From a virus (lineage: Duplodnaviria; Caudoviricetes), in the IMG/VR virus record IMGVR_UViG_2731957577_000001, positions 64,001-128,000 of that record: a DNA stretch of 64,000 nucleotides. One strand, written 5' to 3'. Shown piece by piece: positions 9,145 to 43,688 of this stretch. The position numbers and the translations under genes were made by a program. The notes below the pieces were generated by a model, which worked only from the letters and a program-made list of their open reading frames with translations, ran no database searches and was not told the DNA's origin. The stretch's first letter is position 1; each line of letters begins with the position of its first letter.

Positions 9145-9591
9145 ATGGAACTGCTATCCGAGTATGTCAAACGCCAACGTAACAGACGTCGATGGGTCGT
9201 ATCCATCGATGAACTTGAACCGGACAGCTACCGCACGCCACTGACAGAACGACTGCGAGACTTTATCGGCCAGCCAATTACGCCAGATTTCCAGAATCGG
9301 TTACAGCGAACGTTCGATGAGTATTTTCAGGAGATGCAATATATCAACCCACTGTACCAACCGGAATATCTCTATGAGGATCACTTTGTGATCGTGCCGG
9401 GCGAACGCGAATTCAGGCTCTCACACATCCCTGAACCTTCATCGGTTCTCGTATGGATCAACGAGACTCTAGCCCATTTGTTTGATGACTATACCTTAGT
9501 CGGAGACACCATTGTGTTTTCCGAATCACCGAATCGGGGAGATCTGCGAGTCCAATATCTGGTTCGAGCGCGGAGGCCCGTATGGAACTGA
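9145..9591 (+). CDS. Hypothetical protein, MEL[IL]xxY N-terminal family
   Basis: Starts MELLSEYV; GGAGG RBS. Confidence 0.7.
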   Translation: MELLSEYVKRQRNRRRWVVSIDELEPDSYRTPLTERLRDFIGQPITPDFQNRLQRTFDEYFQEMQYINPLYQPEYLYEDHFVIVPGEREFRLSHIPEPSSVLVWINETLAHLFDDYTLVGDTIVFSESPNRGDLRVQYLVRARRPVWN

Positions 9592-9881
9592 TTTCGGTCT
9601 ATATCGATCAACACCGGCCAACGGTTCACATTGACGATTTGGACATCGAGATTGACCTCGAAAAGTTGCAAATCACCGTGAGGTCGAGGGAATCCAGGAT
9701 GCTCTGTGTGGAGCAATTGCTCTATGAGCTTGGGATCTACAGCGCCGAGGAACTGCCGTGGATTGACATGCAACCGCCCGTCTATCTCGATGAAAAGACC
9801 ACGGTTCACATTGACGTGATGCCCAAGTACAGAAGACGTTTGTGGGAGGCCGTAAATTGGAACTCATTGCTGAATACATGA
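9582..9881 (+). CDS. Hypothetical protein, MEL[IL]xxY family
   Basis: Starts MELISVYI; GGAGG RBS; overlaps upstream stop. Confidence 0.7.
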   Translation: MELISVYIDQHRPTVHIDDLDIEIDLEKLQITVRSRESRMLCVEQLLYELGIYSAEELPWIDMQPPVYLDEKTTVHIDVMPKYRRRLWEAVNWNSLLNT

Positions 9882-10075
9882 AAGCACAGGAAGAGCGAGA
9901 GGAAGCCATTCAGGAAACCATCAATCGATTCATCGAGGAAGTATGTAACCAAATGCGTCAGGCCCTTGATTTCGATTTACATTCAAACGATGAAGTTCGC
10001 AACTACTTTGGTGAAACTCCATCTCCTACGTACCAAGTGCTTCTCCACTATGGGGGTGAAGATGTATGGAACTGA
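9857..10075 (+). CDS. Hypothetical protein, MEL[IL]xxY family (TTG start)
   Basis: TTG GAA CTC ATT GCT GAA TAC ATG = MELIAEYM; GGGAGG RBS. Confidence 0.7.
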   Translation: MELIAEYMKAQEEREEAIQETINRFIEEVCNQMRQALDFDLHSNDEVRNYFGETPSPTYQVLLHYGGEDVWN

Positions 10076-10290
10076 TTTCTGCCTACCTTGAGAACCGTGA
10101 CAAGGCACGACTCGATGAGTTGACCGAAGCCTTCAACACGTTTCTAGACAGCTACAAGAAATTCATGGAGGACGCTGGAATCATTCCGTATTACGGGTTT
10201 CCCAATGACCAACCCACTTGGGTCACACCGATATGGCAAGAACCTCGAAGACCTGACTGGGAGGGCGCTGTACATTATGCAGCCTCTTGA
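10066..10290 (+). CDS. Hypothetical protein, MEL[IL]xxY family
   Basis: Starts MELISAYL; overlaps upstream stop. Confidence 0.7.
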   Translation: MELISAYLENRDKARLDELTEAFNTFLDSYKKFMEDAGIIPYYGFPNDQPTWVTPIWQEPRRPDWEGAVHYAAS

Positions 10291-11020
10291 GCTGACCGTA
10301 AACGATCTGTACGAATTCAAGGCTTGTCCCCTGCGGTTTAAGTTCATGCGTTTGGACAAGCAGCCCGTCAAGATGACGGAGAATGATGGCCTGCGGGAAG
10401 CCGTGAAATCCACCATTAGCTACTTCTATTTCAACTTGGCACAAGGCAAGTTGGTGGGCATGGAAGATCTGAAGCAGAAGTTTGGTTCCATCTGGTATGA
10501 GCGCAACAAGATCTACAACATCATGTATGACGACAAAGTCAAGCAGCGAAAGCGGGAGCTAGAAGCCATCTCGATGTTGGCCTCATTTCATCGCCAACAA
10601 AAGTTCCACCCCGACAAAGTGGTGGCCGTAAATCTGGACTTTCGGATCCCATTTGGAGATGACCTCTATATCTCCGGTCAAATCCCCTTGATCCGGGAAA
10701 GTCCACGGGGTCTTGAGATCGCGCACTTCAAGGTCGGCAACCACAAGCCGGATGAGTTTTGGACCAAGACCGACATGGGGCTAACCATCGAAGCCATTGC
10801 CTTTGAGTCGATCTTTAAACAGCAGGTGCCAAGCATCTGTCTACACTATCTCAAGGCCGGCACAACGGTCTATACCAAGCGGACACGAAAAGACTACCAG
10901 CGTCTCTACAAGACGATCCGCATGATCAAAAAGACGATGGAGGAAGGCTGGTATTATCCTCGAGAGTCCTATCACTGTGACAAATGTCCAGCCAAACAAC
11001 CCTGTATGGAGTGGACTTGA
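10277..11020 (+). CDS. PD-(D/E)XK / Cas4-AddB-like nuclease fold, catalytic motif apparently degenerate
   Basis: 'FKACP..F', C-terminal 'HCDKCPAKQPC'; 'GQIPLI' and 'IAHFK' stand where GxID and IxDxK are expected. Confidence 0.7.
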   Translation: MQPLELTVNDLYEFKACPLRFKFMRLDKQPVKMTENDGLREAVKSTISYFYFNLAQGKLVGMEDLKQKFGSIWYERNKIYNIMYDDKVKQRKRELEAISMLASFHRQQKFHPDKVVAVNLDFRIPFGDDLYISGQIPLIRESPRGLEIAHFKVGNHKPDEFWTKTDMGLTIEAIAFESIFKQQVPSICLHYLKAGTTVYTKRTRKDYQRLYKTIRMIKKTMEEGWYYPRESYHCDKCPAKQPCMEWT

Positions 11021-11403
11021 TGGAACTCATTCAAGCCTACCTAAGCCGCTGTCCGGAGCCAAAGAGCAAGCCGATCCAACATCACGCACCCTGGGCTCGT
11101 GATGTCACATCGTTGTCTCGTCGCGCGAATGCACTCGAAGACCTCTTCCTCGAGCACGGTGTGGCACTGGCTCAATATCGGGCCCTGGAATTCGCAACCC
11201 GTATAGAACGCGAGCACCTAAATGACATCCATAATGTTGAGCGAGAATGGGAACAGGCTCTGCAGGAACTTCTTGAGGAAGAACACCGAAAACGACAAAG
11301 ACAAAAGAGACGATGGCACACAGTACCGTTGATATGGACATGTCTGTGTCTTCTGTTGATAGGACTGGACCTGATCATAGCGATCCTACACCGCACTCAT
11401 TGA
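11020..11403 (+). CDS. Hypothetical protein with C-terminal TM helix, MEL[IL]xxY family
   Basis: Starts MELIQAYL (TGATG overlap); hydrophobic C-terminus. Confidence 0.7.
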   Translation: MELIQAYLSRCPEPKSKPIQHHAPWARDVTSLSRRANALEDLFLEHGVALAQYRALEFATRIEREHLNDIHNVEREWEQALQELLEEEHRKRQRQKRRWHTVPLIWTCLCLLLIGLDLIIAILHRTH

Positions 11404-11419
11404 AAGGAGGTGAGAGGAT

Positions 11420-11614
11420 ATGAAATCCTTCAATGAACTCCAAGTCATCGTGGCCAATGAGATTAAGCAACACGGCGCCGTGACACCCCAGACTGCCGTA
11501 ACCCTCATCGGCCATATTCAAGCCTTGGAAGACAAGGTTCGCAAACTCGAACAAAAGCTCCAAGCCACCAAGCCAAGGGACGAAGGTACCAAAGAGAGCA
11601 GTGGGGAAGAATGA
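11420..11614 (+). CDS. Hypothetical protein
   Basis: AAAGGAGG RBS; 64 aa. Confidence 0.55.
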   Translation: MKSFNELQVIVANEIKQHGAVTPQTAVTLIGHIQALEDKVRKLEQKLQATKPRDEGTKESSGEE

Positions 11615-11656
11615 GCCAACATGGGACACAGGGGTGAAAAACCAAGGAGGATTCAT

Positions 11657-12565
11657 ATGCAAGAACGGTTTTTCACCACGGATGCACACGACTTGCAAAT
11701 GGTCAGGGCCGAACAGATCGGCGTGGACTATGTAGACTGGGGTCTACAGGTGATCATGGCACCCGAGGTCTGGAACAAAAGCATAGGCCAAGGCGTCAAA
11801 GTCGGCATCCTCGACACAGGCGTCGATTTCACGCACCCTGATCTCCGGGATAACATCGCCGCCTACATGGACTTCACGGGGTCTCCGGCCGGCCCACGAG
11901 ATGTAGAAGGACATGGCACGCATGTCGCCGGCATCATCGCCGCTGAATCGAACAATGTGGGCCTTGTCGGCGTCGCACCAGGAGCCAAGCTATATTGTGC
12001 CAAGGTCCTGGGCGATAACGGCAGTGGCGGGTTTGACGCCATCATCCGCGGCATTGATTGGTTGATTCAACAGGGCGTGGATGTCATCAATATGTCCCTG
12101 GGATGTTCCGTCGAGCCTCCGCAGGAAGTCCATCAAGCGATCCAACGCGCCGCGGCCGCCGGGATTGTCATCTGCGCAGCCTGTGGCAACGAGAATACCG
12201 ACGTCGGCTGGCCGGCCAAGTACGATGAAACGATTGCGGTATCCGCAATGGGTATGGACTACAACCGGGCGGAGTTTAGCAATCACGGCGTGAAAAACGA
12301 GATCATTGCGCCGGGTGTTGACATCCTATCTACATTCAAGGGAAGCACCTACGCACGTCTGTCCGGCACCAGTATGGCGACTCCAATTGTCACAGGTTCT
12401 GTCGCCTTGTACATCTCGATGATCAAGGCGCAGACCGGCAAACGTCCACCGGCGGAACAGATACATGCGGCGATTGACGCCTCCGCCGTTCACCTTGGCA
12501 AGGAAGGAAGAAACGAGGATTTCGGCGTAGGACTGATAAATCTCGTGAAACTCTTAGGAATTTGA
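11657..12565 (+). CDS. Subtilisin-like S8 serine protease without signal peptide
   Basis: Catalytic triad motifs 'ILDTG', 'HGTHVAG', 'GTSMATP'. Confidence 0.92.
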   Translation: MQERFFTTDAHDLQMVRAEQIGVDYVDWGLQVIMAPEVWNKSIGQGVKVGILDTGVDFTHPDLRDNIAAYMDFTGSPAGPRDVEGHGTHVAGIIAAESNNVGLVGVAPGAKLYCAKVLGDNGSGGFDAIIRGIDWLIQQGVDVINMSLGCSVEPPQEVHQAIQRAAAAGIVICAACGNENTDVGWPAKYDETIAVSAMGMDYNRAEFSNHGVKNEIIAPGVDILSTFKGSTYARLSGTSMATPIVTGSVALYISMIKAQTGKRPPAEQIHAAIDASAVHLGKEGRNEDFGVGLINLVKLLGI

Positions 12566-12566
12566 A

Positions 12567-12593
12567 TAGGGGGCTATGTTCCCCCTGTTTTTT
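12567..12593 (+). terminator. Rho-independent terminator
   Basis: AGGGGG..CCCCCT stem followed by GTTTTTT. Confidence 0.65.
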
Positions 12594-12621
12594 CGCTTCA
12601 GCCTATGCTATCATGTGTCTG

Positions 12622-12653
12622 TGCAATGCATTACACTGTTGCAACGCATTACA
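12622..12653. promoter_or_regulatory. Tandem palindromic operators
   Basis: TGCAATGCATTACA (12622-12635) and TGCAACGCATTACA (12640-12653), just downstream of extended -10 TGCTATCAT. Confidence 0.7.
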
Positions 12654-12673
12654 TCAAATCGAAGGAGAGGAAA

Positions 12674-12829
12674 ATGATGGGCCACAAAGTCCAGATCATC
12701 GAAGATCTTGGCAAGGGCGTCCTCCGAGAGCAATTGGCCAAGAAGGGAGAGAAGTCGGATGCTCATCGGGAGCAAACGCAAGAAGAACTTCGTCCTGGAG
12801 AGTCAAACGCACGAGCTGAAGACGAATGA
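12674..12829 (+). CDS. Small hypothetical protein
   Basis: AAGGAGAGG RBS directly after the operators. Confidence 0.45.
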   Translation: MMGHKVQIIEDLGKGVLREQLAKKGEKSDAHREQTQEELRPGESNARAEDE

Positions 12830-13217
12830 TCAGGTGCTGATTGTCCAGCAGAAGTCCGATGGCGGAATCACCAACTATGACTTGATTCTCGAGCCGGACA
12901 AGTTTGATCAGCTTGGATCTGAGGTGCGCCTGTCTTTCGAGGAATACTGCGAAACCATCAACGATCTGGTCACGGAGGAAGAAGACGACTGGGATTCGCT
13001 CCGGATGAAAGACCAAATCAACATGACACGGGATGCGATCCTCGAGCGGACGATTCTCAAATACGCCAAGGAAAAGTACGGCCTCGATCCGGAGCAATTT
13101 AACGGACACGACATGAATTACATCAAGCGATATGGGTCGGACGGGAGTTTCCTCGGCGAAGCCGTCATCGTCACCTTGACGATGATCCCGACGATGAATG
13201 CGGCCGTGAAAGGGTGA
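12759..13217 (+). CDS. Hypothetical acidic protein
   Basis: GGGAG RBS before MLIGSKRK. Confidence 0.6.
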   Translation: MLIGSKRKKNFVLESQTHELKTNDQVLIVQQKSDGGITNYDLILEPDKFDQLGSEVRLSFEEYCETINDLVTEEEDDWDSLRMKDQINMTRDAILERTILKYAKEKYGLDPEQFNGHDMNYIKRYGSDGSFLGEAVIVTLTMIPTMNAAVKG

Positions 13218-13777
13218 GACACATGTTGGTCCCCCTGGAGCTGCCGATGATGATGTATGGCAAGTACAAAACCAGCTGGTATGTCAACGACCCGTCCGGT
13301 GCCACGGATCCAAGGACCGGGAAGCCGAAGAAAGTGAAGAAGACAAAGATCGTAGAGCACTTAGAGGAACGCGGCGATCCCGGGTTTTATCCAAGTGTCA
13401 ACCACATCTATCAGAACATCCGTGGCGGCGGCAAAAAACTGACAAAAGCTGCAGAGCAACTACTAGCAAAGTGGCGCAGTCTGGCGAAAGCATGGGCGGA
13501 GGAAGTCGGTTGGGAATGCACGCACGGTGAAAAGGTCATCGTCGAAGTTACGGCCTTCTTCCCAGACAACCAAAAGAGAGACACGTCCAACGTATACAAG
13601 CTGATGATGGATGCTTTGGAGGGTGTCATCTACGATGACGACTACTACGCCCTTCCGCGAACGATGGACTTTCAAGTCTTGCCCAAGGATAGCGCAAAGC
13701 GACCGTATTTTCGGCTCCACATCTACAAGAAAACCGACGAAGATCTGCATGGGCGTCAGGTTGCAGGAGGTTTTTGA
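13214..13777 (+). CDS. rusA: RusA-family Holliday junction resolvase
   Basis: 'PSVNHIY', 'RDTSNVYKLMMDALEGVIYDDD'. Confidence 0.85.
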   Translation: MRHMLVPLELPMMMYGKYKTSWYVNDPSGATDPRTGKPKKVKKTKIVEHLEERGDPGFYPSVNHIYQNIRGGGKKLTKAAEQLLAKWRSLAKAWAEEVGWECTHGEKVIVEVTAFFPDNQKRDTSNVYKLMMDALEGVIYDDDYYALPRTMDFQVLPKDSAKRPYFRLHIYKKTDEDLHGRQVAGGF

Positions 13778-14532
13778 TGTCGGACGAGTTGGTCCTGCGC
13801 TATCAGCAAACTGGAGACTGCGCCGGCCTCATCGAGGCATACCGGCCATACATCGAGAAGTTTCAGCGCATGTTTCTCACTGGAGACATTGACTTTGGAA
13901 ACTACGACATCCGACGGTTCCTCGCCTGTTACATATCGGACAAAGAGACGGTACGAAGTCTATGCCGTGGAAAATACCACAGCAAGCAGGCCATTCAGGA
14001 AGCCTATCGGGTGCTCGAGAAAATACGCCGGGTCTTTGACGGCTATGAGTCTGACGAACTCTTTCATGAGTTGTTGATCCCGTTTCTCACATGCGCAAGG
14101 TGTTACGAGCCTTCCGGCAAGACGTTCAGTCAATATCTGTACAGCTGCTTTCGATACCGACTCAAGCGGCTCATCGATGAACGACTGTTGGATACCAATG
14201 GGGAAATGGCCTATTGGGACATGCACGAGCCCGCCAGTGAAGCCTTAGAGGACGAGTTGGACCTCGACCGCCCTGAGTACATGGATCCCAGCGAGCCCGT
14301 GGATTTGCACAGTCTACTCTGGCTCAACGGCACCCTCTGCGGAGACACGTTCCGGGATCTCACGTACACCGAGCGATACATCCTCGTCAAGGCCTATGAA
14401 GATGGTCTGGATGAACGAGCCATCGCACAACTGACAGGGTTACACCATCGCTCTGTATACCGAATCCGCAAACGATTGATTGAGCATTTCCGCAACCTGC
14501 GGGATAAAGGAGAATTGAAATGGATCAGGTAG
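13777..14532 (+). CDS. Sigma-70-family sigma factor-like protein
   Basis: 'ELVLRYQQTGD...LIEAYRPYI', 'YEPSGKTFSQYL', region 4 'LTYTERYIL...Y..G.....IA...G.....V.RI'. Confidence 0.75.
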   Translation: MSDELVLRYQQTGDCAGLIEAYRPYIEKFQRMFLTGDIDFGNYDIRRFLACYISDKETVRSLCRGKYHSKQAIQEAYRVLEKIRRVFDGYESDELFHELLIPFLTCARCYEPSGKTFSQYLYSCFRYRLKRLIDERLLDTNGEMAYWDMHEPASEALEDELDLDRPEYMDPSEPVDLHSLLWLNGTLCGDTFRDLTYTERYILVKAYEDGLDERAIAQLTGLHHRSVYRIRKRLIEHFRNLRDKGELKWIR

Positions 14533-14780
14533 CCATCATCAACCCCGATGCGAAGGTCGCTGGAATGGCTTGCAAGACGAAACAAGACGAACACACGTTA
14601 ATTCCACTGGACTGCTACGGCCGTGACATCGAATTCCTCGAGGACCGAATTGTCATCAAAAATCTCATCGTCCCGCACGCATGGTTTGAAGCCGTCCAGT
14701 TTTTCGACGAGAAGCACTGGAACGATATTGTCGAAGCGATTCGTCGGAAAGAAGCCCTCGATCTCTCGTATGCTCAATAA
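14520..14780 (+). CDS. Hypothetical protein
   Basis: AAAGGAG RBS. Confidence 0.55.
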   Translation: MDQVAIINPDAKVAGMACKTKQDEHTLIPLDCYGRDIEFLEDRIVIKNLIVPHAWFEAVQFFDEKHWNDIVEAIRRKEALDLSYAQ

Positions 14781-14785
14781 TTCTC

Positions 14786-14833
14786 TTGATTTCACACCTT
14801 CTTACGTTTATAATGATTGTGTAATGTATTACA
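14786..14833 (+). promoter_or_regulatory. SigA promoter with operator at the start site
   Basis: TTGATT-17bp-TATAAT (14786-14814), then TGTAATGTATTACA (14820-14833). Confidence 0.75.
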
Positions 14834-14849
14834 CGAAGGTTGTGAAGAC

Positions 14850-15707
14850 ATGCCTGTGCTGCAACCGATGATCGATCGGTTCCTTCAACAGAAGCAACAG
14901 CAAAACGACCGCCCGATGCGGAACAAGTTGCATCCATCGACGATCGGCATGTGTCAACGCAAGATCGTCTTTGAGATGATGGTTGTGCCTCGGGCGCTGG
15001 ATCCGCCGCGATTGGCTCGGGTGTTCGACAATGGACACAAGGTTCATGAACGATATGAGCAACTGTTCATGGACATGGGCATCGGAGTGGCACGAGAAGT
15101 TAAACTGGAGAAGGGAGACATCTCAGGTCACACCGATGCCTTGATCAAGCTGTATAGCTTTGCGGCGCCACAGGGCGAATACTGGCTTGTGGAACTCAAA
15201 AGCGCCTCCTCGAAATCCTTTGAGTGGATGGTCAAGAACAACCAACCCAAGAAGGAACACAAAGCGCAACTGACGTTCTACATGCACCTAAGCGGGATCC
15301 ATAAAGGCGTCATCCTGGTGGAGAACAAAGACAACCAGGAGATCTGGGAGTACGAGATGGAGTACGATCCAGTCTTCGGCCAACAGCTTGAACAAAAGGC
15401 ACTGTGGCTGATTGATTTAGCCAAGCACCGCATCCTACCGCCGATCCCAAGGGGTTTTTCGCCGTCTCATTACAAATGCGCCTACTGTCCATTTGCGATG
15501 TATTGCCACTATGGATCCCGAACCGAAGATGGGCAAGAGCGTTACCCGATTCCGTTCATGCCGGGGACGGAAGCGTATCGGGATATACTCAAGATCATCG
15601 AAGCGATGGAGCAAGGCAAGTCGATTCCCAACGTCATTGAAGGGGATACCATCGGGGAATTGATCCAAGAAATGACAAGAAAAAGCCAGACGTATGTCGA
15701 CGCTTAA
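14850..15707 (+). CDS. Cas4-like PD-(D/E)XK exonuclease
   Basis: 'HPS.IG.CQR', 'G...H', 'GHTD', 'VELKS', 'QL.FYM', 'C.YCPF..YC'; no CRISPR context. Confidence 0.8.
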   Translation: MPVLQPMIDRFLQQKQQQNDRPMRNKLHPSTIGMCQRKIVFEMMVVPRALDPPRLARVFDNGHKVHERYEQLFMDMGIGVAREVKLEKGDISGHTDALIKLYSFAAPQGEYWLVELKSASSKSFEWMVKNNQPKKEHKAQLTFYMHLSGIHKGVILVENKDNQEIWEYEMEYDPVFGQQLEQKALWLIDLAKHRILPPIPRGFSPSHYKCAYCPFAMYCHYGSRTEDGQERYPIPFMPGTEAYRDILKIIEAMEQGKSIPNVIEGDTIGELIQEMTRKSQTYVDA

Positions 15708-15730
15708 ATCCGATGGTAAGAGAGGTTGGG

Positions 15731-16051
15731 ATGAGCATGGTATTCGTCGATGTCGGTTTCAGCAACTTTATGGACGCGAGCAAGATCATTACGATCAGCC
15801 GGCCGGATTCGAGCCCGATCCGCCGGTTAGTCGGCCACGCCAAGGACAACAATCGGTACATCGACCTGACGCAAGGGAAGAAGACCCGTTCGATCATCGT
15901 GAGTGCCGGCGAACAAGGTCTGGTTGTCACCGCTTCTGCGGTCCAGACTTCCACGATTATCGGGCGGATTCGCAAGGCGTTCGAAGACTTGTTTGTCTCC
16001 CGCTTGGATCCCGCTGGCTTGGCGGTGATTGGAGAAGGTGGGTCCGAGTAA
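15731..16051 (+). CDS. remA: RemA (DUF370) extracellular-matrix regulator homologue
   Basis: 'VGFSN...SKII.I..PDSSPIRRL...AK.....IDLTQGKKTRSII......SAVQ..TI..R' follows the B. subtilis RemA pattern. Confidence 0.85.
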   Translation: MSMVFVDVGFSNFMDASKIITISRPDSSPIRRLVGHAKDNNRYIDLTQGKKTRSIIVSAGEQGLVVTASAVQTSTIIGRIRKAFEDLFVSRLDPAGLAVIGEGGSE

Positions 16052-16076
16052 TCCCCAACAAAGGAGCGATGGACGC

Positions 16077-32277: not shown

Positions 32278-32330
32278 AAAAGAATAGATCTTTGAATCAG
32301 ATCCAATAAACAATTCTCCTCCTACTCCTA

Positions 32331-33688: not shown

Positions 33689-33910
33689 TTACCTTGCATC
33701 CACATGCTCCTGGATGAAACGTCGAAAGAGCGGATTTTGAGTCTGAATCAGCCAGCGCACGTACGCAACATTCTCCCGTCCGTAGGCGCCTTTTCGTTCC
33801 CGTGCGGGAACTTCTTGTTCAAATTGCGCCCACAGTTTCCGGTGTTCATCGGGATACGCATCGGCAAAGGCGTTCGTAGCAAAGATGGCCCGTTGGAACT
33901 CTAAATTCAT
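33689..33910 (-). CDS. Hypothetical protein
   Basis: GAGGAG RBS. Confidence 0.55.
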   Translation of the reverse strand: MNLEFQRAIFATNAFADAYPDEHRKLWAQFEQEVPARERKGAYGRENVAYVRWLIQTQNPLFRRFIQEHVDAR

Positions 33911-34338: not shown

Positions 34339-34349
34339 GTTTAGTCCTC

Positions 34350-34535
34350 CTAGCCAACGGCAATGACATCAAACGCATCACCGAGTTTCTCTCGAATCTC
34401 ATCAGGAGTCGCTTCGACGACCGCCATCAAATGGTCATTGACCGAGATGACCTCAACCTTTTGTTTCAACGCATCGACCTGAGATGTATCCTCTAACTGA
34501 ATGAAATAGACAGCCACAACATCGACCTCCTTCAA
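34350..34535 (-). CDS. Small hypothetical protein
   Basis: First gene after the operator-containing promoter; start uncertain. Confidence 0.5.
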   Translation of the reverse strand: MKEVDVVAVYFIQLEDTSQVDALKQKVEVISVNDHLMAVVEATPDEIREKLGDAFDVIAVG

Positions 34536-34547
34536 GGATCATAGGCC

Positions 34548-34597
34548 GTGTAATGCATTACACAATCAAGTATAATACACAAAACACGGCCTCTCAA
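34548..34597 (-). promoter_or_regulatory. SigA promoter with perfect palindromic operator
   Basis: Minus strand TTGAGA-17bp-TATACT, then GTGTAATGCATTACAC (34548-34563). Confidence 0.8.
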
Positions 34598-34612
34598 TGG
34601 AAAAGCTGTGCG

Positions 34613-35971
34613 TTATGCGTTCGTTTCGCCTTCAACCGCTTCAGATTCGCCCGAACCGTTCTCCTGCGCCTGTTCCGCCGCGGCAGCTACATCCTCGGCA
34701 AACGGGTCTACTTCGGCTTCCGGTGGATTGAAGTCCTCGATCACGACACTATCCTTCATGTACGTGGTACGGATCGGGGTCACCAAGTCCAGATCCGACG
34801 AGCTGGTACCGGACACCCGAATCACAAACGGCGTCTTCGGAGACGTGAAGCAAAGCACAACCTGTTCCTCCGGAGAGATGGCGCCAAGCATGTCGAGGAG
34901 ATACGCAACGTTAAAGCTCGTTCCGATGTCCTTGCCCTCGGAAGACAGAGGCCGAATGTCTTCCTGGAACTTGCCATACTGGGTCGGATCGGACAGGAAC
35001 CGAACTTGGCCGTTCTTCGCGTCGACCAAGATATGAGCTGTTGTCACGCCCACATCATTCGCATACAAGGTCGCGCGACTCAGCAACTCCCTCAGCTCGC
35101 CGGCGCGAAACTGAATCTTAGTGCTGAAGTCAGGTGGAATGATCCGGTCGGTATCCGGGTATTGATCGTGCAACGTGCGAGTATAGATCGTGGTGTCGTC
35201 CAACTCATACAACACATAGCTCTTATCGAACCGGATTGTCACCATATCAACGTCCTTCAGGTGTTTCACTACTTCGTTAATGGAATCGGCCGGAATCACA
35301 TGGTTGCCATCCTCCACCTCACCGGTCAGTTGATACGACTGCTGCGCAAGACGGTGAGAATCGCATCCAATGGTCCGGAATATGCCGTCCTTGACGATGT
35401 GGTTCACGCCCGTCAGAACCGGCCGCGTCTCCGATTTGGATGTCGCATAGACAGTGCGGCGATACATCGTTGCCAGAACCGCGGACGGAACGGAGAACGA
35501 TAGCTGTCCATTGACCGACGGCAGCTTGGGATACTGGTCAAGGTGCAGACCCGCCAGAGACATCTTGGCGCCCTTGAACTTGATGAGCGTCTGAAGTTTG
35601 TTGAACTCGATGGTCACATGCTTTCCAGTAACACGGTTCACCAGGTCGACGAACTTACGACCCGGGAAGATAAGGCCGCCACCCTCTCCCTGAACGCGGA
35701 ACGACTCCATATCCGTGATGACGGTCTTCGTATAGAAGTTGCTGTTTCCGCCGATCAGCGTGATCTTGTTGTCCTCAACCTGAAAGTAAATGCCCTGGAG
35801 CGCCTGGGAGGGCGAGTTCTTTGACACCGAGTTTCCGACCTTACGAACCGCCTCACGTAACACTTCGCTCTTGATGGTCAGTGTGAACACCTGATTGGTC
35901 GTAAAGACCTGCTTCTCGGCCTCCTTCTCCAGTTCAACCGCCTTCTTCAGGTCAGCTTCTGCAAGCGCCAT
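34613..35971 (-). CDS. dnaN: DNA polymerase III beta sliding clamp
   Basis: 'L.GIY', 'YP.LP', 'ETRPVLTGV', 'DSHRLA', 'YPD..RIIP', 'FNV.YLLD', 'P.R'; acidic extensions. Confidence 0.92.
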   Translation of the reverse strand: MALAEADLKKAVELEKEAEKQVFTTNQVFTLTIKSEVLREAVRKVGNSVSKNSPSQALQGIYFQVEDNKITLIGGNSNFYTKTVITDMESFRVQGEGGGLIFPGRKFVDLVNRVTGKHVTIEFNKLQTLIKFKGAKMSLAGLHLDQYPKLPSVNGQLSFSVPSAVLATMYRRTVYATSKSETRPVLTGVNHIVKDGIFRTIGCDSHRLAQQSYQLTGEVEDGNHVIPADSINEVVKHLKDVDMVTIRFDKSYVLYELDDTTIYTRTLHDQYPDTDRIIPPDFSTKIQFRAGELRELLSRATLYANDVGVTTAHILVDAKNGQVRFLSDPTQYGKFQEDIRPLSSEGKDIGTSFNVAYLLDMLGAISPEEQVVLCFTSPKTPFVIRVSGTSSSDLDLVTPIRTTYMKDSVVIEDFNPPEAEVDPFAEDVAAAAEQAQENGSGESEAVEGETNA

Positions 35972-36020
35972 GATACATTCCTCCTCTTTTTAATTCCCTA
36001 AAATTCGGCGACAGCCGGCT

Positions 36021-36383
36021 TTAAGCCGTAACGGATTTGCGTTCGAGTTTCTGGATGGCGATGACTAACTGGACATCGAGTTCCTCCATCGTCTCCTCAT
36101 CGTAGATGGGCATACCCAACTTGGAGGCCACAAGGATCTCGAGTCTTGCGCCTTTTGAATCAAGCCAGTTCGGAAGGACCACCACTGCATCGGCATCCAA
36201 CATGGCCTTGATATCCCTACGCAGGTAATCCTCCCACGACCAACCCTCGACATAACCGAGCCGCGCGGGATTGATGACCTCATATCCCTTCTCATTCAGC
36301 CGTTCCTCAGCGGCGAAAAAGGCCTCATAGTTGTAGTTCTCCATTCCAGACATCGGGCCGCTGATGTAAATCTTCGTTGCCAT
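36021..36383 (-). CDS. DUF4406 / nucleoside deoxyribosyltransferase-like protein
   Basis: 'KIYISGPMSG..NYN..AF', 'NPA', 'W.DS.GA.LE..VA..LG'. Confidence 0.8.
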   Translation of the reverse strand: MATKIYISGPMSGMENYNYEAFFAAEERLNEKGYEVINPARLGYVEGWSWEDYLRRDIKAMLDADAVVVLPNWLDSKGARLEILVASKLGMPIYDEETMEELDVQLVIAIQKLERKSVTA

Positions 36384-36409
36384 ACAAATACCCCTCAAGC
36401 AGAAGTTTT

Positions 36410-36688
36410 TTATCTCCAGGGGAGCGCGCCTGAAAGCAAGACGCTTGTCTCCACCTGTCCATCCCATTCTTTCGGGATCGTGACTTGGCCAGACTTCACA
36501 TCCACGATGATCGGATACTGATTGTCGGTGGAGTATGCAAATGTGCGAAGCCGACCTGTCTGCGGATCGTACTCCATCGAGGCCAACATCATGCCATCGA
36601 CCATGATCGCCACACCCGGACAAGGATCATCTGGGTATCTCATGACTTCAATCGTCCCAAGCGGAGTCTTCACCGGCTCCAACATCAT
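36410..36688 (-). CDS. Hypothetical protein
   Basis: GGGAGG RBS. Confidence 0.5.
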   Translation of the reverse strand: MMLEPVKTPLGTIEVMRYPDDPCPGVAIMVDGMMLASMEYDPQTGRLRTFAYSTDNQYPIIVDVKSGQVTIPKEWDGQVETSVLLSGALPWR

Positions 36689-36700
36689 CCCTCCCATCCG

Positions 36701-37570
36701 TCAGCTCAAGATCAGCTCAAGCTGGCCTTGGGCTACTTTACGACTGTTGTCCGCAATCTTCATCGGAGGGTCATATGGATCGAACCCACCGAGGCCATCC
36801 GGCATCAAGGCGTACCAGGGCGCATACCAGAACATCTGGATCTTGCAAAGTTTGACCGCGACCAGATTCATGTCCACCGCATAGGCCCGAAGGATGTAAT
36901 TACTCTGCGGAAGAAGCATGGCACCGCACCCTACACTTGGTTCACAGGTAGTCTTTCTCTTGAGTGCCTCCGGGTCTTCCCCGCCCACCAACATCTTTGT
37001 CATCATCACGCACAGATGAAATGGAGTGGGAAAGTACCCGAGGGCGCCCCGGTATCCCCGACCCATTTCGTCACACAAGATTTGACTCATGTAGTCGGTC
37101 GGGTTATCCAGAACCAGAAACAGATCAAACATCCGGTAGTAATGCTCATTCAGTTCAGATGAGATGTCCGGCGGAGAGTTTCTGGCACCAAAACCCCAAA
37201 GCAACCAATCTGCAAACTTCTCAATATTGGACTCCCATCGATAATCCTCTAAGCACTTGGTAAGCATCTTATGGGTGGCGGCCACGCCCGAACTCCCTCG
37301 ATCTGCCCACTGGATTTGAGGAATCGGGCCGCTATCCGCAATCGTGCCTTTGGCTACGATGTCGAGCCACCAATTCCACCGACCCCAGAGCAGCTGGTCA
37401 TACGCAAGCAGGAATGGGAGCAACCAACCCTTCTTCTCGAAGACCTCGTTGGCGTTTTTCGGCGCGCCACCCATTGCGCTGGCACATTCGAAGAACGTGC
37501 TGTGCATCTCCAAGAGCTTTTCAGGATCGAATCGCTCAACGCGGTATAAGCTCGTTGATTTCTTCTTCAT
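36701..37570 (-). CDS. N6-adenine methylase (HsdM)-like protein, SAM-binding part only
   Basis: 'GYFPTP', 'EPSVGCGAML', 'AVD'; no NPPF motif. Confidence 0.6.
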   Translation of the reverse strand: MKKKSTSLYRVERFDPEKLLEMHSTFFECASAMGGAPKNANEVFEKKGWLLPFLLAYDQLLWGRWNWWLDIVAKGTIADSGPIPQIQWADRGSSGVAATHKMLTKCLEDYRWESNIEKFADWLLWGFGARNSPPDISSELNEHYYRMFDLFLVLDNPTDYMSQILCDEMGRGYRGALGYFPTPFHLCVMMTKMLVGGEDPEALKRKTTCEPSVGCGAMLLPQSNYILRAYAVDMNLVAVKLCKIQMFWYAPWYALMPDGLGGFDPYDPPMKIADNSRKVAQGQLELILS

Positions 37571-38006
37571 CGTCTTCGTCCTCACCACAATGCACAATGA
37601 ACGAGTCAGGGACATACTCTCCATCGGGAAGCGCGCTCCACTTATACGCCTTCAGAACGGCTTCCTCCAGGCATTCAGCCTCAACCTTAACAACCCCGGA
37701 CATCGTCCAGCTTACAGGCAATCGATATGTCTTAGTGGTCCGATTCCCACGAAAGACCAGGCTCGGAGCGTCCTCTGAACTGCCGGGACGTTCCTCGAAG
37801 TCGGCTTCATTGAAGCTGTAGACTTGAGTGCCGATCCCATCATCCAAGATTTCAAATACGCGCGCGTCGTCCGTCTCGGGATCAAAATCTTTCCAAACCA
37901 CTTGAGCCAATGAGAGTCTTGCTTCCTCAAGGGTCGGCTTGGACCACAAATCCTCCACAATTCCACCGTTGGACACGATGCACACATACCTGGAAACAAT
38001 GTTCAT
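37536..38006 (-). CDS. Acidic hypothetical protein
   Basis: AAAGGAG RBS before MNIVSRYV. Confidence 0.55.
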   Translation of the reverse strand: MNIVSRYVCIVSNGGIVEDLWSKPTLEEARLSLAQVVWKDFDPETDDARVFEILDDGIGTQVYSFNEADFEERPGSSEDAPSLVFRGNRTTKTYRLPVSWTMSGVVKVEAECLEEAVLKAYKWSALPDGEYVPDSFIVHCGEDEDDEEEINELIPR

Positions 38007-38120
38007 CGATAAACTCCTTTCCAATAGATCGGATTGGCCAACAGATTCTGTAGGCATGTCGTAAATCCCGTGAAAATAAGTAGCTTTGGAAGAAAATCCA
38101 GTTCATCGAGGTCATACCAA

Positions 38121-38402
38121 TCAAGAACCATCGGAAATACTCCTCTCCCCTCCGTCGATGCGGCGTTTGAGCCAAGAAAACGTGATTTTGAGGCGGCGGA
38201 ACACAAACGCAATCCCTTGAGTGGCCTCACCCCGATGATGAATGATCCCAAACCAATGGATGGCTCGGCCGGTATTGGTACGCCAAGAGTCGCCCTTGTG
38301 TTTCGCCCACGCCACGTATACCCCGTATCCCGCGAAGGCCAATCCACGCGCGGAGTAATCAGGGTCATCATGACGAATCCGAATCAACCATCTCACCACC
38401 AA
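38121..38402 (-). CDS. Hypothetical basic protein
   Basis: Operon-fitted ORF. Confidence 0.4.
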   Translation of the reverse strand: MVVRWLIRIRHDDPDYSARGLAFAGYGVYVAWAKHKGDSWRTNTGRAIHWFGIIHHRGEATQGIAFVFRRLKITFSWLKRRIDGGERSISDGS

Positions 38403-38413
38403 ACCGCCGGCGC

Positions 38414-41400
38414 TCAGAAGAGCGCCAGCTCGTATTGGCCTTCGGCGACAAGCTCTTTCTTGCGCTTGCCCTTGTTGTAAGACGCTGCGTCTTGCACCAG
38501 CGTGAACATCTCCTCGACATGGGCCAGATAATCGGCCAAGTCGAGGGCAGATATCCGGCCGGCGGCCACATCCTCTTGCATCTGCTTGACGATGCCTTGC
38601 TGGATGCGACGGACTTCCTCGATACCCAGCGGGTTCATATCGTACCCGTCATAGCCTTCAAACGTCGCATTCTGCAGCTCCTCATACGTCGCATTGATTC
38701 GCTGCCAGCGGCTCTCGATGGAACTGACATCATCCAGCGTGCCTTCGTTGACGAGTTTCTTGGCCAACGCGGTGATGCCCTCACCACTATCCGCCATCGC
38801 CCGCAAGCCTTCCTCAGAGAACTTGCCTTGCAGCGCCAATGCGGCGTCAATCTTGCGAGCAATGTGTTCCAAAACATTGGCCTGGATAGTATCTCGATAA
38901 ACCATCGTGTAGACCTCGACCGGTTGCGTCTGCTTGATCCGCCAGGAGCGGCGGCTGGACTGCATGTAGTTATAGGTGGAGTAATCCATCTGGTAGTAGA
39001 TGATGGTCGGGAACATGAGCAAGTCGAGACCCACGGACACCAGGCGCGGGTTGGTAATCAGAACATCCCAATCATGCTTCTCCATCATCTCATGCAGCCA
39101 GGCTTCCCGGTCCTCTTGCTTCGGCATCTGGATACCGTCATAGACACCAGAGGCCTTTAGGATCCCGACATTGTATCCATCCGCCTTGAGTTTCTCGTAC
39201 AGGTACGTGTCGACGCCATTGGATCCTGTGAACCGGCAATACACCAACACCTTTCGACCGCGACGGTGAATCTCATCGTCGAGCTTCAAGGTCAACTCAT
39301 GGTACTTGGTCGGAATAAACGTGGACGGATCGAAGTTCGTAGGCACCGTGATCACATGCGTGAGTCCTTCATTATCCTCATACGTGATGGGACCCCAATT
39401 CCACGGTGTATCCGAGTATTGATACAACGTGTTGATGTACGTCGACACATGCCGCATGCCACCGGTCAGGAACAGACTCTGACGCATGATGCTACCGATC
39501 TCGTCTTCCACTTGCTTGTAAGCGGCGAAATGCCTTTCATCCATCTCGACGAAGATGGGCTCTTCTCGATACGGCGGCAAGGCATATCCGAGGTCGGCCA
39601 GTTCCACAAAGGCACAGTTGCTAATCAAGTATCGGGAGAACACATGCGGTGAGACACCCGCACGCTCCCTCATGCCGGACTTCTTTCGGTTCGACAACGG
39701 TCTCCCGTTCCCCAGGTGCTGTTTGTACGAGTGTTCATAGACCCCGTACCGCTCGATGAACAGGGACAAGTCGTTGTAGCTGATGCTCTCCCGAAGCAAA
39801 CGCTTAGGATCCAGACGCGCCAAAAGGTAGAAGATGTCGGACGCCATGCCACCGAGCAACGTCCCGGTCAGCAGGATCTGCTTCTCGGTATGATTGATCA
39901 GCTGGCCAAACGCCTTGGCGCGGTCGGTCTCGCCGCTCTTGTATTCATGAACTTCGTCGGCGATGAGATACTTGAAGAACCCGCGCCGAAGACGCTTATT
40001 GATCATCCATGCCGGAGACACCTTCCGATTCAGGGAGTCTTTCTTGAGGAGCGCAGGCCGCCACAAGACAAACCCACATTCCTGCTCATGTTTCGACGGA
40101 TCCTTGACCATGTGCTTAGGTAAGTCCGCCGTGCGAACCCGATTGCGGCACACATAGTTCTCGGCCTTCATCGTGTTCATCCACTTGCCGTTGCGCTTGG
40201 TTTGGAAGAAGTGCTCATCGGCCGGCTCCTTCTTCCGAGCCATGAGCAGGCCGCCACACTGCGGGCAATGAAACCCGGTATCGGTCGTCACGACGGTCTC
40301 TTCTTCCCGACCGGTATTGATGTTGAAATACGGTTCTCTCCGGAACCGAATCCGAGCCTTTTCCCCATTGGCTTTCCGTTCCTTGGCGTCCGCCGCGTTA
40401 TACCGCCAATCTTGAATCGGCTCCATCGGATACGTCGCCTTTGCCACATCGGAGGACATGACCCAATACTCAATCTCACTGGGCCGATAGGGCATCTTCT
40501 CCATCTTCAAGACGTTTCGCCATGAGGTGATTTCATATACCTTGGCGCCAGGGACACGCTCTTTGATCTCCCGCTTCCACTTCTCGACCATAATACCGGG
40601 AACGAACACCAGCGCCCGGTACGGATCCACCTTGCCCTTTGACATATGCTCGGTGATATAGGGAATGACCGCACCCATCGCGGTCTTGCCTGTCAGTTGT
40701 GTTACCGTATGGGCTTTTTATCCCATACTTCTAACGGTTCATATTCCCGTTAGCTCAGCATACCTTTTCACCCTCGACTCAACGTTAGGGTGGCGCGGCC
40801 TCGTGGGAGCATTATTCCTGTTACCGGTCAGCTCCTATGCGTTGCCCCTGACTGGGATTTGCCCAGCCTTCGGTTCGGGTCAGCATCTCAGCCTTCCCGC
40901 TTAATTCCGCGCTATTGCCCACTACATTTCTGCAGTGGCGGGCATCATCTACCCATCTCGCCCACGACGAAGCAATACTTCTCGTCCTTGAGCGTCTTGG
41001 CAACCCCCATCACCACGTCGGCCTGTGGCGGAAAGAGACCCGTGACCCCATTCTTGTTGGCGTGCAGGTTCACGTCATAGAACGCCGGCGAGTGTTTCTC
41101 CTTGGTCGGATCAAATCGAATCTGGCTATTCTCCTGAATCCGATCGCCCAGCGCGCTGGCAAAGTGGCTCAGGTACGTATCGAGAGAGTCGCAATCCTTG
41201 AGAACCGACTGTTCATCAGTCCGGCCATCATCAAGAAGTGCAAAGTCCAGATCCAGAGACTGAATCCCCTCGGTGATGATGTTCTCCAAGTCGCGTTCCG
41301 TAATCTGAAGCAGACCGGCCTTGAGCGGATACTCATTGCCATAGCAATGAACCGTCAGCTTTCGGAAGTAGCCGAGGTCGATGCACTGTTGAACAATGTA

Positions 41401-41925
41401 ATCCGCCCACTCTTCCAGCATGGGGGTGTTGTAACGATCATTGAGGATGCGGAAGATCTGCTTCTCAATATCCCCATCCCACGCCAGAATGAGTTCTTCG
41501 GGTGGCCGGCGCGGTTCAAGACCCTGTGCCAATCGCTCATCCTCTTCTCGCTGCCAATCCTGTCGAGCCTTAATGTTCGGCTTGGCACACTTGGCAACGA
41601 CCAACATGTGGGTCAAATCCTCGACCCGAGTTTCAAACACGTCAAACGCATTGCGGTCGGGCATGACGACATCGAAGCAGGTATGGCCCTTTTCGTAGGA
41701 ATTGCCTTCCGCGCGCCGAATTTGGCCGGTCTTAAAGTCGTTCATGAATTCGACGACTTGATGCACCTTGCTGTCGGCACCAATCACGTTGGCTAGATAC
41801 ACAGTGCGATGACGCCGCTGATAATCTACCACGAGCAGATCAATATACGCCTGCGCGCGCTGGTGCCGAGCATACATTTCGAGCAAATAGATCTCGTTGC
41901 TCTGAAAATCCGCCACTTTGAACAC
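38414..41925 (-). CDS. SF2/SNF2-like helicase, two exons (41925-40951 and 40693-38414), 1084 aa when spliced
   Basis: Splicing restores Walker A GEMG|TGKT; 'DEVH', 'LTGT', 'GLDL', 'QSSRRSWRIKQ'. Confidence 0.88.
40694..40950 (-). mobile_element. Group I self-splicing intron without ORF (257 nt)
   Basis: Follows exon U, ends in G; P1 GGGU/GCCC with U.G pair; core-like segments AATTAAGCGGGAA, CCGAACCGAAG, GCAACGCATAG, AAGGTATGCTGAG (P7 GCATA/TATGC); removal restores frame and motif. Confidence 0.88.
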
Positions 41926-41928
41926 CTC

Positions 41929-43179
41929 TTACATGAGTTTGTGAAATTGCCCGTGACGATCTAAGAACTTCACACCGATGTGGTAATACTCTCGTTCCTT
42001 GATGCGCGTTACACCTTCTTCATCTTCTTCCGTCGTCTCTTGCGACATCTTGACGACGCTCCCCTTGACCAGATGCTGGTCGGGGCCCGTTCCGATGTAT
42101 CCATTCAGATACCCAGACGCCAACATCAAGGCAACGTGACCTTTATGAAGCTGTGTTGGTGGTTTGGGAACCTCGTTATCCAGAACCTGCGAGTACGTCT
42201 GCTGATACGAAGAAACCAGGCTCGACCTGCGGATGAACGACAGCGCTTCTTCCGCGGTTACCGGACCAACTCGAAAGTGCAAAACGTCTTCTTGTCGTTT
42301 CGAAGGAACCTGATACAGCGGTTGCGCTTGAATCGAGATCACCGGAATTTCTTTGTAGGGACGATACTTATACTGCATCAGCTCATACGCATACTCGGGA
42401 TCCCGAATCGCCTTGGGCCGCTTCCGCGCAAAGATAATGCACTTTCTCTGTTCCTCATACTCTGCGTCATCTTGCCGATAGACCCGGATATCGTCGTACT
42501 GATTGGCCAGCTTGAAGCAAATCTGGCTGTCGATGAACTCCTTGGGCGTGACGAAGATGAGGATGCCATTCGGGGCCAGCTTATCCGAAACCAGATTCAG
42601 CAAGAACTTGTCCCAACGGTAGGTCACCATCCGGCGTTCTTGCTCCCGCTGCATCCGGCGGAAGGCAATTTCCCGTTCCTCGATGGTCTTTCTCACCTTG
42701 GCCTCAAACTTCTCCCGACGCTTTTGGATCTCTTCTTCGGTCAACCCCTCGTCACCAAAGTCAATGACGTCCTCATCTTGTGCCTCTTGTGCTTCCAGCA
42801 GCCGGCGGACTTCCGCTTCAAAGTCTGGAATCGTGAAGGGGTCATAGTCCCGGAAGATCTCATCAATCAATCGGCTGTCCACATCCGGGTTCATGACCAC
42901 CAGCGAGAAGGCTTCCGGCGTCACCTTGGACTCATTTTTATACGAGGACGTGCAGACCTTCGTGAACCTTTCCCGCGCGCGATTGGCTTGCCATTGATTT
43001 TCCGTGACCCCATACCGATAGGTCTCCGGGTGCATCCTTGTAATCTCATACAGCACTTCCCCATCGCCGCACCGATAATCCAGAGCGGTGACGGCCTGGC
43101 CCTCTGGGAACTTCAAATACGTGCGAATCACTTGGCACGTAAACTTGCTCAGTGGCTCATTCATCCACCGTGCGTACAT
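41929..43179 (-). CDS. Class I SAM-methyltransferase-like protein (DUF6094-like), degenerate
   Basis: 'LDYRCGDG', 'YGVT', 'FSLVVMNPD', 'L.PNGILIFV.P', 'L..GH..L.LASG..NG'. Confidence 0.65.
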   Translation of the reverse strand: MYARWMNEPLSKFTCQVIRTYLKFPEGQAVTALDYRCGDGEVLYEITRMHPETYRYGVTENQWQANRARERFTKVCTSSYKNESKVTPEAFSLVVMNPDVDSRLIDEIFRDYDPFTIPDFEAEVRRLLEAQEAQDEDVIDFGDEGLTEEEIQKRREKFEAKVRKTIEEREIAFRRMQREQERRMVTYRWDKFLLNLVSDKLAPNGILIFVTPKEFIDSQICFKLANQYDDIRVYRQDDAEYEEQRKCIIFARKRPKAIRDPEYAYELMQYKYRPYKEIPVISIQAQPLYQVPSKRQEDVLHFRVGPVTAEEALSFIRRSSLVSSYQQTYSQVLDNEVPKPPTQLHKGHVALMLASGYLNGYIGTGPDQHLVKGSVVKMSQETTEEDEEGVTRIKEREYYHIGVKFLDRHGQFHKLM

Positions 43180-43193
43180 GGCCTCTCTCCTCC

Positions 43194-43688
43194 TCAGATC
43201 GTTTCATCCAAACTGTAAACGTCAAAATCAATGAAATCCTCGTCATCCAACGAGAAAGGATTGCGAACCCGGCGTGTGGACCTTGAGTCTGCATAGTCGA
43301 TACATGCCGTTAAGTCATGAATGACGGCATCGATCAACTCAATGGGGATCCCTCGCTGTAAATACCCAACCGTGCTTCCAACTTGCCGACCATGATGGGC
43401 TGTCTTATCGCGGAAGATCCCACCCTCTGCGAATGTGGTCTCAATGATGGCAAAGGGAACGGGGGATTCGAGTTCGAAGGTGTGATCATCGGTCGCTTTG
43501 AATCGAACCATCACACGATACCATTTGTCCTTGACCTGGAATCGCTTCGAAAACACCTTGACCTTGGCGGTGAAGCGATCCAACAGCCACCCTCTTGCTT
43601 CTGAGGTCATGACGTCAAACGTATCCGGGTGGATGCCGCTCATGCGAATCGGAGTGACATTGTACATGTAAGCCTGAATCAATTCCAT
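43194..43688 (-). CDS. Hypothetical protein, MEL[IL]xxY family
   Basis: Starts MELIQAYM; AAGGTG RBS; TGGTATAAT promoter upstream. Confidence 0.7.
   Translation of the reverse strand: MELIQAYMYNVTPIRMSGIHPDTFDVMTSEARGWLLDRFTAKVKVFSKRFQVKDKWYRVMVRFKATDDHTFELESPVPFAIIETTFAEGGIFRDKTAHHGRQVGSTVGYLQRGIPIELIDAVIHDLTACIDYADSRSTRRVRNPFSLDDEDFIDFDVYSLDETI

Follow-up and report, generated by a model that had tools for sequence, protein, structure and literature searches.

The window described here is a stretch of 64,000 nucleotides (nt) of viral DNA (G000:C7:64001-128000), taken from C7, a contig of 198 kb and 52% guanine plus cytosine (GC). Eight genes in the window begin with the same kind of peptide, and all eight start codons translate at the positions in Table 1 as M/L-E-L-[IL]-x-x-Y-[LIVM]. 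A reading made earlier from the letters of the window (the sequence-only reading) had claimed these eight tagged starts, and translation confirms every one. Each start is preceded by an in-frame stop codon, 2-31 codons before it, and by a GGAG-type Shine-Dalgarno sequence 6-10 nt upstream. The proteins behind the tags are dissimilar after residue 8, as had also been claimed: BLASTP detects no similarity among the eight from residue 9 onward. One body does have the transmembrane (TM) helix ascribed to it, namely the product of the gene at 11020, which sits between the genes for a PD-(D/E)XK nuclease and an S8 protease. Pfam and PHROGs searches with ten other tagged proteins besides the eight of the window returned nothing significant, the best match being a weak one to Terminase_6N (E = 1e-3). 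A megablast of the region against phage records gave no match, and a search for loci related through the PD-(D/E)XK nuclease found none.

Table 1. Tagged genes and the principal genes discussed with them. Sizes are in amino acids (aa); positions are those of the window unless C7 or a locus is named.
Feature	Position	Strand	Remarks
Tagged gene, 148 aa	9145..9591	+	MELLSEYV; opens a run of four tagged genes in tandem; Pfam and PHROGs without a match
Tagged gene, 99 aa	9582..9881	+	MELISVYI; start overlaps the preceding stop (TGGAACTGA read W-N-stop)
Tagged gene, 72 aa	9857..10075	+	MELIAEYM; TTG start; GGAGG 8 nt 5' of the TTG
Tagged gene, 74 aa	10066..10290	+	MELISAYL; from translation
Tail-anchored tagged membrane protein, 127 aa	11020..11403	+	MELIQAYL; C-terminal TM segment, residues 100-127
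S8 subtilase	11621..12565	+	Pfam E = 3e-59
Tagged gene, 120 aa	19699..20061	+	MELIEAYL; immediately 3' of dnaE
Tagged gene, 150 aa	20037..20489	+	MELITRYL; from translation
DnaN beta-clamp, phage-encoded, 452 aa	34613..35971	-	Same replication cluster as TAG164; alternative candidate reader
SNF2-family helicase	38414..40678	-	Next conserved neighbour of TAG164; candidate reader
DUF6094-type methyltransferase-like protein, 416 aa	41929..43179	-	Conserved neighbour of TAG164; candidate reader
TAG164 founder-family gene, 164 aa	43194..43688	-	MELIQAYM; tagged orthologue in 10/10 clade records
Further tagged genes, outside the window	C7 150766, 152916, 153202, 153440, 153672, 161239, 162589		Relaxed scan
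Variant tag MVTELIQPYL, outside the window	C7 151019		Relaxed scan
Stand-alone tagged P-loop protein, 206 aa	L006:14590-15210 = C7 162589-163209		TerL-type Walker A (AERRTGKTT) and Walker B; nuclease domain absent

The starts at 9582 and 10066 overlap the stop codons of the genes before them, as follows. The DNA of the tag, ATGGAACTGA, holds a TGA in the +2 frame, and the upstream genes end ...V-W-N-stop. Because the tag DNA contains this TGA, the geometry of the stop/start overlap is imposed on the upstream neighbour. The W-N-stop overlaps were considered as a separate signal and rejected, since they are a consequence of the TGA within ATGGAACTGA.

Among the genes of C7 are those for the terminase, portal, major capsid protein, and protease-scaffold, along with tail sheath-type genes and a complete set for replication. 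For 163 of the ~282 crude gene calls on the contig, BLASTP finds no homologue among three clade relatives and MTATph1, a phage of Moorella. The contig is a jumbo-myophage-like genome within an assembly of 3.63 Mb, the other contigs of which have a GC content of ~60%, against 52% for C7; a mis-binned phage and an extrachromosomal phage of the assembly's host are both possible. The tag, with the consensus M-E-L-[IVLM]-x-x-Y-[LIM] at the very N-terminus, is concentrated on this contig. When the whole assembly was scanned for start codons matching the strict motif, 10 of the 11 matches fell on C7, and the eleventh lay 226 codons inside an open reading frame (ORF). That is, the frequency of the motif in the replicon and in the host assembly is not similar, a comparison that the sequence-only reading had put forward as a check. 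A relaxed scan brings the tagged genes on C7 to 14-16 in total, with none credible in the other 3.4 Mb; six to eight of them lie outside the window and come in addition to the eight known before. A degenerate DNA pattern for the tag, ATGGARYTNNTNNNNNNNTAYNT, has 12 matches on C7, while 300 other genomes of the phylum have mostly 0-6 matches per genome, on scattered contigs. By Fisher's test, 14 of 282 genes of C7 against 0 of 243 genes of Moorella phage MTATph1 gives p = 1.6e-4, and the comparison of C7 with an assumed ~3300 host genes gives p = 3e-16. The tag is the sole recurrent N-terminus on C7, and in the 60,744 residues of the contig the motif stands at residue 2 in 10 genes versus five internal occurrences. 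Two similar sequences within DnaE were rejected as tags: DLIPDYI, which recurs in the DnaE of a related phage, G002 (as MDLIPSYI), and TELLKDYL, which is not seen in other phages. The first of these we take to be a conserved polymerase motif.

The tag extends well beyond C7 but is confined to one clade, the 0305phi8-36-related jumbo phages of Bacillota (Bacillus-type bacteria), with genomes of ~200 kb. All 10 related phage records that were tested carry it (GC 35-52%, with a major capsid protein at least 72% identical). In the nine related records from IMG/VR (capsid protein 72-84% identical, 190-229 kb), the DNA pattern has one to eight exact matches each, and a reversed-pattern control has none in any record. 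Gene-level counts were made at ORF starts in C7 and in the relatives G001, G002, G003, and G005, all as whole genomes, for the strict motif and for a core pattern, M-[EDN]-[LM]-x-x-x-Y. The strict and core counts are 14 and 14 in C7, 7 and about 9 in G001, 14 and about 25 in G002, and 9 and about 21 in G003; in MTATph1, they are 0 and 2, the latter spurious. G005, a near-complete clade member of 194,705 bp, is contig NODE_7 (NZ_QWEH01000007.1; L071-L080) in the assembly of the isolate Oceanobacillus profundus DSM 18246. It is the least similar member examined (capsid protein 72% identical) and has three tagged genes, at positions shared with C7: upstream of the PD-(D/E)XK nuclease gene, right after dnaE, and at the gene that we call TAG164 (see below). 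All three are in replication operons. G005 also provides an example of a variant tag, MDLA.

Five outgroup phages lack the tag. These are MTATph1, 0305phi8-36, KLEB27-3, and WH1, with capsid proteins 48-60% identical to that of C7, and G007, at 36%. The Bacillus phage 0305phi8-36 itself stands at 49%; its virion proteome is known. Besides it, the outgroups include two further Bacillus jumbo phages. MTATph1 has a capsid protein 60% identical to that of C7 and shares 49 of the ~282 C7 genes, and no tagged protein has a BLASTP match in it.

Codon and residue statistics were taken over the 44 strict tags of four phages (C7 and G001-G003, GC 37-52%). M1, E2, and Y7 are invariant, and L3 is present in 41 of the 44; position 4 takes one of I, V, M, and L, position 8 takes one of L, I, and M, and positions 5 and 6 are free. 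The synonymous codon variation reported among the window's tags is real and extends to this larger set: all six Leu codons are used at Leu3, E2 is written GAA 23 times and GAG 21 times, and Y7 is written TAT 27 times and TAC 17 times. For the conserved residues, pairwise identity is 80-86% at codon positions 1 and 2 versus 31-42% at position 3, and the 24 nt flanking the tag on either side are ~30% identical. In G005, the same Ser is AGC in one tag and TCA in another. With third codon positions almost random and no relation between the flanking sequences, selection is seen to act at the level of the protein, and what is conserved is the amino acid sequence. An element acting in the DNA or RNA, for example a recombination boundary or a regulator site, was considered and rejected, given the free third positions and flanks and the encoding of Leu3 by both CTN and TTR codons. 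Conservation solely at the DNA level, which the sequence-only reading had named as evidence that would speak against it, is thus excluded by the codon and flank data.

The same data bear on the idea that the tag has no partner and is an aid to expression or folding, with a locally optimal set of first eight codons or a favorable nascent peptide (an early-elongation ramp or solubility cap) copied along with the 5' ends of genes for the good expression that it would give to new ORFs. Such an aid would suit a tag that stands at the exact start of its genes without exception, that marks mainly young, rapidly evolving ORFs, and that can be missing from an orthologue whose gene is kept. Nevertheless, we consider it quite unlikely: third codon positions and upstream DNA are free, leaving no RNA-level conservation; the tag is used by 5-8% of genes, and the highly expressed structural genes are without it; and it is kept across hosts that differ widely in GC (35-52% in the phages) and is absent from sister phages of similar hosts.

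At the protein level, the tag has the character of a two-turn amphipathic helix. On a helical wheel, M1, L3, I4, Y7, and L8 lie on one face, and the helical hydrophobic moment is 0.40, versus 0.29 for shuffled tags. The protein-level selection on an amphipathic helix face that the sequence-only reading had argued for is therefore borne out, by the codon-position identities and by the hydrophobic moment. Past position 8, nothing is conserved across the 44 tags, although position 9 is E or D in 17 of them, and residues 9-13 are polar. The tag does not have the form of a Sec or Tat signal peptide, as only eight residues are conserved, E2 is acidic, and residues 9-13 are polar. In AlphaFold2 models of two tagged proteins, described below, the tag is a short helix at the periphery (residues 5-8 in one, 2-8 in the other) followed by coil. 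The predicted local distance difference test score (pLDDT) of residues 1-10 is 49 and 61 in the two models, versus 80-94 for the cores.

The bodies that carry the tag are of several types: a small β-barrel, an α/β fold, a P-loop ATPase, a tail-anchored membrane protein, and short helical proteins. In BLASTP comparisons among the four phages, most of the tagged proteins match no other. Where genes occupy equivalent genomic positions, the tag persists while the bodies diverge, as seen after dnaE and beside the PD-(D/E)XK nuclease gene. The gene that follows dnaE bears the tag in C7, G001, G003, and G005 (for G002 this is not shown). At the place that corresponds to the 11020 gene, G001 and G003 likewise encode tagged TM proteins, so that tail-anchored TM proteins carry the tag at a conserved genomic position.

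The β-barrel proteins, of ~80 residues, occur in tandem arrays; 20 aligned sequences have a mean column identity of 21% and share G17. The AlphaFold2 model built from these 20 sequences has a mean pLDDT of 77.7, with the barrel at residues 19-70, and Foldseek against the PDB found no match at E ≤ 1e-3 and only weak bL19/SH3/Sm-like matches. The model of TAG164 is an α/β fold with a pLDDT of 82, and here too Foldseek found no PDB match at E ≤ 1e-3. In C7, G002, and G003, arrays of the tagged barrel genes lie downstream of, and on the same strand as, the gene for a YonO-like two-barrel RNA polymerase of 1055 aa, located in C7 at L006:6521-9688 (C7 154520-157687), minus strand, and matching the Pfam family RdRP PF05183 with E = 1e-12. 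Short ORFs resembling the OrfA of IS3-type transposases (MSAIRRNHPPEFKAKVV...; C7 151363-151878, plus strand) interrupt the minus-strand region in which the tagged genes lie.

The P-loop ATPases have 206-265 residues, a terminase-type Walker A motif (AGRxTGKT), and a Walker B motif. The C7 member is distinct from the real TerL, which is encoded at C7 171953-173716, and a PDB profile search with the family found nothing. This ATPase is tagged in C7, G001, G002, and G003, and its orthologue in G005 is untagged, starting MKNIWLKIKSFF. Since the G005 orthologue lacks it, the tag can be present or absent within a single protein family. The tag is thus a module separable from the bodies that carry it.

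Might the tagged genes instead all be diverged paralogues, of which only helix 1 is still recognizable? Some of them are true paralogues, as the barrel arrays attest. We nonetheless regard common descent as a very unlikely explanation of the whole set. There are at least four unrelated body types (the TerL-type P-loop ATPase, the β-barrel, the α/β fold, and the TM-anchored helical protein), an untagged ATPase orthologue exists, and a relic of ancestry would not hold E2 and Y7 invariant beside saturated neighbouring codons.

One bearer of the tag is conserved throughout the clade. Each of the ten clade records has a tagged TAG164 orthologue, encoded in every case immediately upstream of the DUF6094-like gene. 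Both belong to a replication cluster with the order ThyX, UvrD-like helicase, DnaG primase, (ERF), TAG164, methyltransferase-like gene, SNF2, and DnaN clamp, and C7 keeps this order at 34613-46911 of the window. In C7, the SNF2 helicase region (38414-41925, minus strand) appears as two ORFs, 38414-40678 and 40945-41925. A clade-conserved ThyX of 508 aa is encoded at 54566-56092 of the window (minus strand), and no link between it and the tag was found.

A word-indexed search of 5.8 billion proteins with TAG164 found only TAG164 itself, and a profile search of 1.84 billion representative proteins found 42 clusters only. Most of these start MEL/MDL-x-x-x-Y, including very weak matches, down to E = 4e-4. 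Four divergent metagenomic contigs keep the order [~190 aa] - TAG164 - [430-470 aa] - [SNF2, ~1100 aa], within ThyX - UvrD - DnaG - (ERF) ... DnaN; the 430-470-aa gene has a weak DUF6094 match in one of the four, and no other gene on these contigs is tagged. None of the five outgroups has TAG164 or the methyltransferase-like gene, and a search of NCBIfam with the founder module found nothing. The simplest history suggested by these distributions is that the octapeptide is the native N-terminus of the TAG164 family, that the whole jumbo clade has the module, and that the tag then spread to other genes within the clade. The sequence-only reading, sound in its observation, had missed both this native N-terminus, in a family encoded beside methyltransferase-like and SNF2 genes, and the spread of the tag through the clade.

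What does the tag do? Because an exposed, invariant, and transferable helix sits on unrelated bodies, we propose that it is a peptide by which they all dock onto a single partner, one with a probable link to replication, and we give this docking proposal about an even chance (a probability of roughly 0.5). The tag would be a short linear motif, that is, a portable two-turn amphipathic helix on a flexible stalk. It would have originated as the N-terminus of TAG164 inside the replication cluster, and the same eight residues would have been grafted onto structurally unrelated, fast-evolving accessory proteins, from 3 tagged genes in the Oceanobacillus phage to ~25 in the richest genome. The helix would dock each bearer onto a common receptor, so that a changing set of small proteins, including a membrane anchor and a terminase-like ATPase, may be brought to the same place or machine. 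The first candidates for this receptor would be the founder's conserved neighbours, namely the DUF6094-like protein, the SNF2 helicase, and the ~190-aa protein; the second would be another replication hub, such as the phage β-clamp. The sequence-only reading had spoken of a sorting or docking signal shared by effector-like cargo proteins. The first half of this holds in so far as the peptide acts as a module independent of the bodies; for effector-like cargo, no positive evidence was found.

Clamps are classic readers of terminal peptides. The phage DnaN has 452 residues, as against 376-378 for the bacterial clamps that it matches at ~32% identity, and a divergent relative on L084 has 632. It is present in seven of seven clade genomes tested and absent from four of five outgroups; in 0305phi8-36 the clamp is 23% identical. 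Known clamp-binding motifs, which bind the cleft between clamp domains II and III, gather a range of unrelated proteins at a single replication hub. The tag, too, is a short terminal peptide, and the gene for the phage's own clamp lies in the cluster that also holds TAG164. Hda, a small P-loop ATPase, carries the clamp motif QLSLPL at its N-terminus, the clamp consensus being QL[SD]LF (PMC5397184), and the tagged ATPase is likewise a small P-loop ATPase with an N-terminal motif. The tag departs from QL[SD]LF and QLxLxL in having no Q and in having two extra residues between the hydrophobic pairs. Its hydrophobic spacing, at positions 4, 7, and 8, is that of the PIP-box of PCNA clients, Qxx[ILM]xx[FY][FY], and the hydrophobic residue at position 4 and Y7 fit. 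In contrast to the PIP-box, position 1 is Met instead of Gln, position 8 is aliphatic, and E2 and L3 are fixed where the PIP-box is free.

Several points weigh against the docking proposal. The tag fits no known hub-binding consensus, with E in place of the Q of clamp motifs and a spacing unlike QL[SD]LF, and the phage clamp keeps the canonical binding pocket. The untagged phage 0305phi8-36 has a distant clamp and also a YonO-like RNA polymerase (PMC7824862). Conservation in TAG164 runs past residue 8 (Y9, P13, I19), and in that family the tag helix may partly be a structural element. A helix of eight residues could equally serve stability, turnover, or expression. The gene calls were made by a crude home-made caller. 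Some 39 gene families share the clade-specific phyletic pattern of the tag, and they correlate with it equally well. As the tag also has a single origin, co-occurrence has no power to tell a receptor apart, and profiling by phyletic pattern was rejected as a way to find the reader. A radical SAM gene (60881-61693, minus strand; Fer4_12 and Radical_SAM; clade-conserved) was considered as a tag-modifying enzyme and likewise rejected, being QueE/NrdG-like with nothing to link it to tags.

It is tempting to go further and to propose an address system private to these phages, in which a helix borrowed from the small subunit of a replication-linked methyltransferase-like/SNF2 module would recruit up to ~8% of genes to one machine, and new genes would plug in by gaining the tag. 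Those recruited would be a constantly shifting set of accessory proteins together with a membrane anchor and a terminase-like ATPase. This wider proposal we hold to be rather doubtful.

A virion-packaging role had been suggested by analogy with the capsid-targeting sequence (CTS) of phage T4. In the internal proteins IPI, IPII, and IPIII of T4, the CTS is an N-terminal peptide of ~10 residues that is portable to foreign proteins and in which positions 4 and 7 are critical (PMC9026906). By this analogy, the tag would bind the prohead scaffold or core, and its bearers would be packaged and injected with the DNA; the methyltransferase-helicase pair could be a DarB-like anti-restriction cargo packaged along with them. 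The likeness of form is clear, since in the 44 tags as in T4 a short N-terminal peptide is common to unrelated, rapidly changing small phage proteins (PMC9026906), and the tagged genes do occur in tandem arrays. In other respects, the two systems differ. Nothing after residue 8 of the 44 tags is conserved that could serve as a processing site, such as the prohead-protease cleavage site that a T4-type tag has directly behind it. A gp21-type protease with a gp22 scaffold core is not the head system of C7; its protease-scaffold is homologous to gp123 of 0305phi8-36 (33% identical, E = 2e-56; annotated as HK97 gp4 / P2 gpO-like) and is thus of a type found also in untagged relatives. No tagged gene lies in the structural module; the bearers are in replication and accessory regions, the positions shared with G005 being in replication operons, and one conserved bearer is tail-anchored in the membrane. 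Up to ~8% of genes are tagged, which also sits poorly with packaging. We consider a T4-like capsid-targeting role unlikely. A methyltransferase and helicase pair does recall the packaged P1 protein DarB.

The S8 protease encoded just after the tagged array had suggested a protease or degron tag. This link does not survive comparison with the relatives, as there is a double dissociation: MTATph1 has an S8 orthologue (48% identical) and no tags, and G005 has tags and no S8. A degron or timer could still be read by another protease, that is, an AAA+ protease or adaptor of host or phage origin recognizing the exposed N-terminal helix, so that the accessory proteins would be short-lived or cleared at a given stage. 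A short, exposed, hydrophobic N-terminal element on many dispensable-looking proteins is of the right kind, and a cytosolic N-terminus on a membrane protein would fit FtsH-type extraction. However, no protease co-varies with the tag, S8 being dissociated from it in both directions; the invariant E2 and Y7 at fixed spacing suggest a specific pocket over generic hydrophobic recognition; and for the founder, a conserved core protein of the replication cluster, constitutive instability has no obvious advantage. A degron, too, is in our estimation unlikely.

We found no description of this motif in the literature, and an overview of jumbo phages (PMC7824862) mentions no such tag; nothing relevant was found on DUF6094, and no literature was found on MTATph1. 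Tags of this general kind are familiar from clamp-binding tails and the T4 CTS, whereas this motif is, as far as we have found, undescribed, and its founder-and-spread history is unusually clear. The founder module of a small tagged protein, a DUF6094-like protein, and an SNF2 helicase is uncharacterized and is conserved in a wider group of phages. The presence of a clade member with three tagged genes in the cultured O. profundus DSM 18246 brings the question within reach of experiment and gives a possible laboratory system. Should the tag prove to be a docking label, it would offer a minimal portable tag for directing proteins within infected Bacillota. It would then show which of the many uncharacterized genes in these jumbo phages work together and at what site, and a phage could wire newborn genes into an existing machine by the addition of eight residues.

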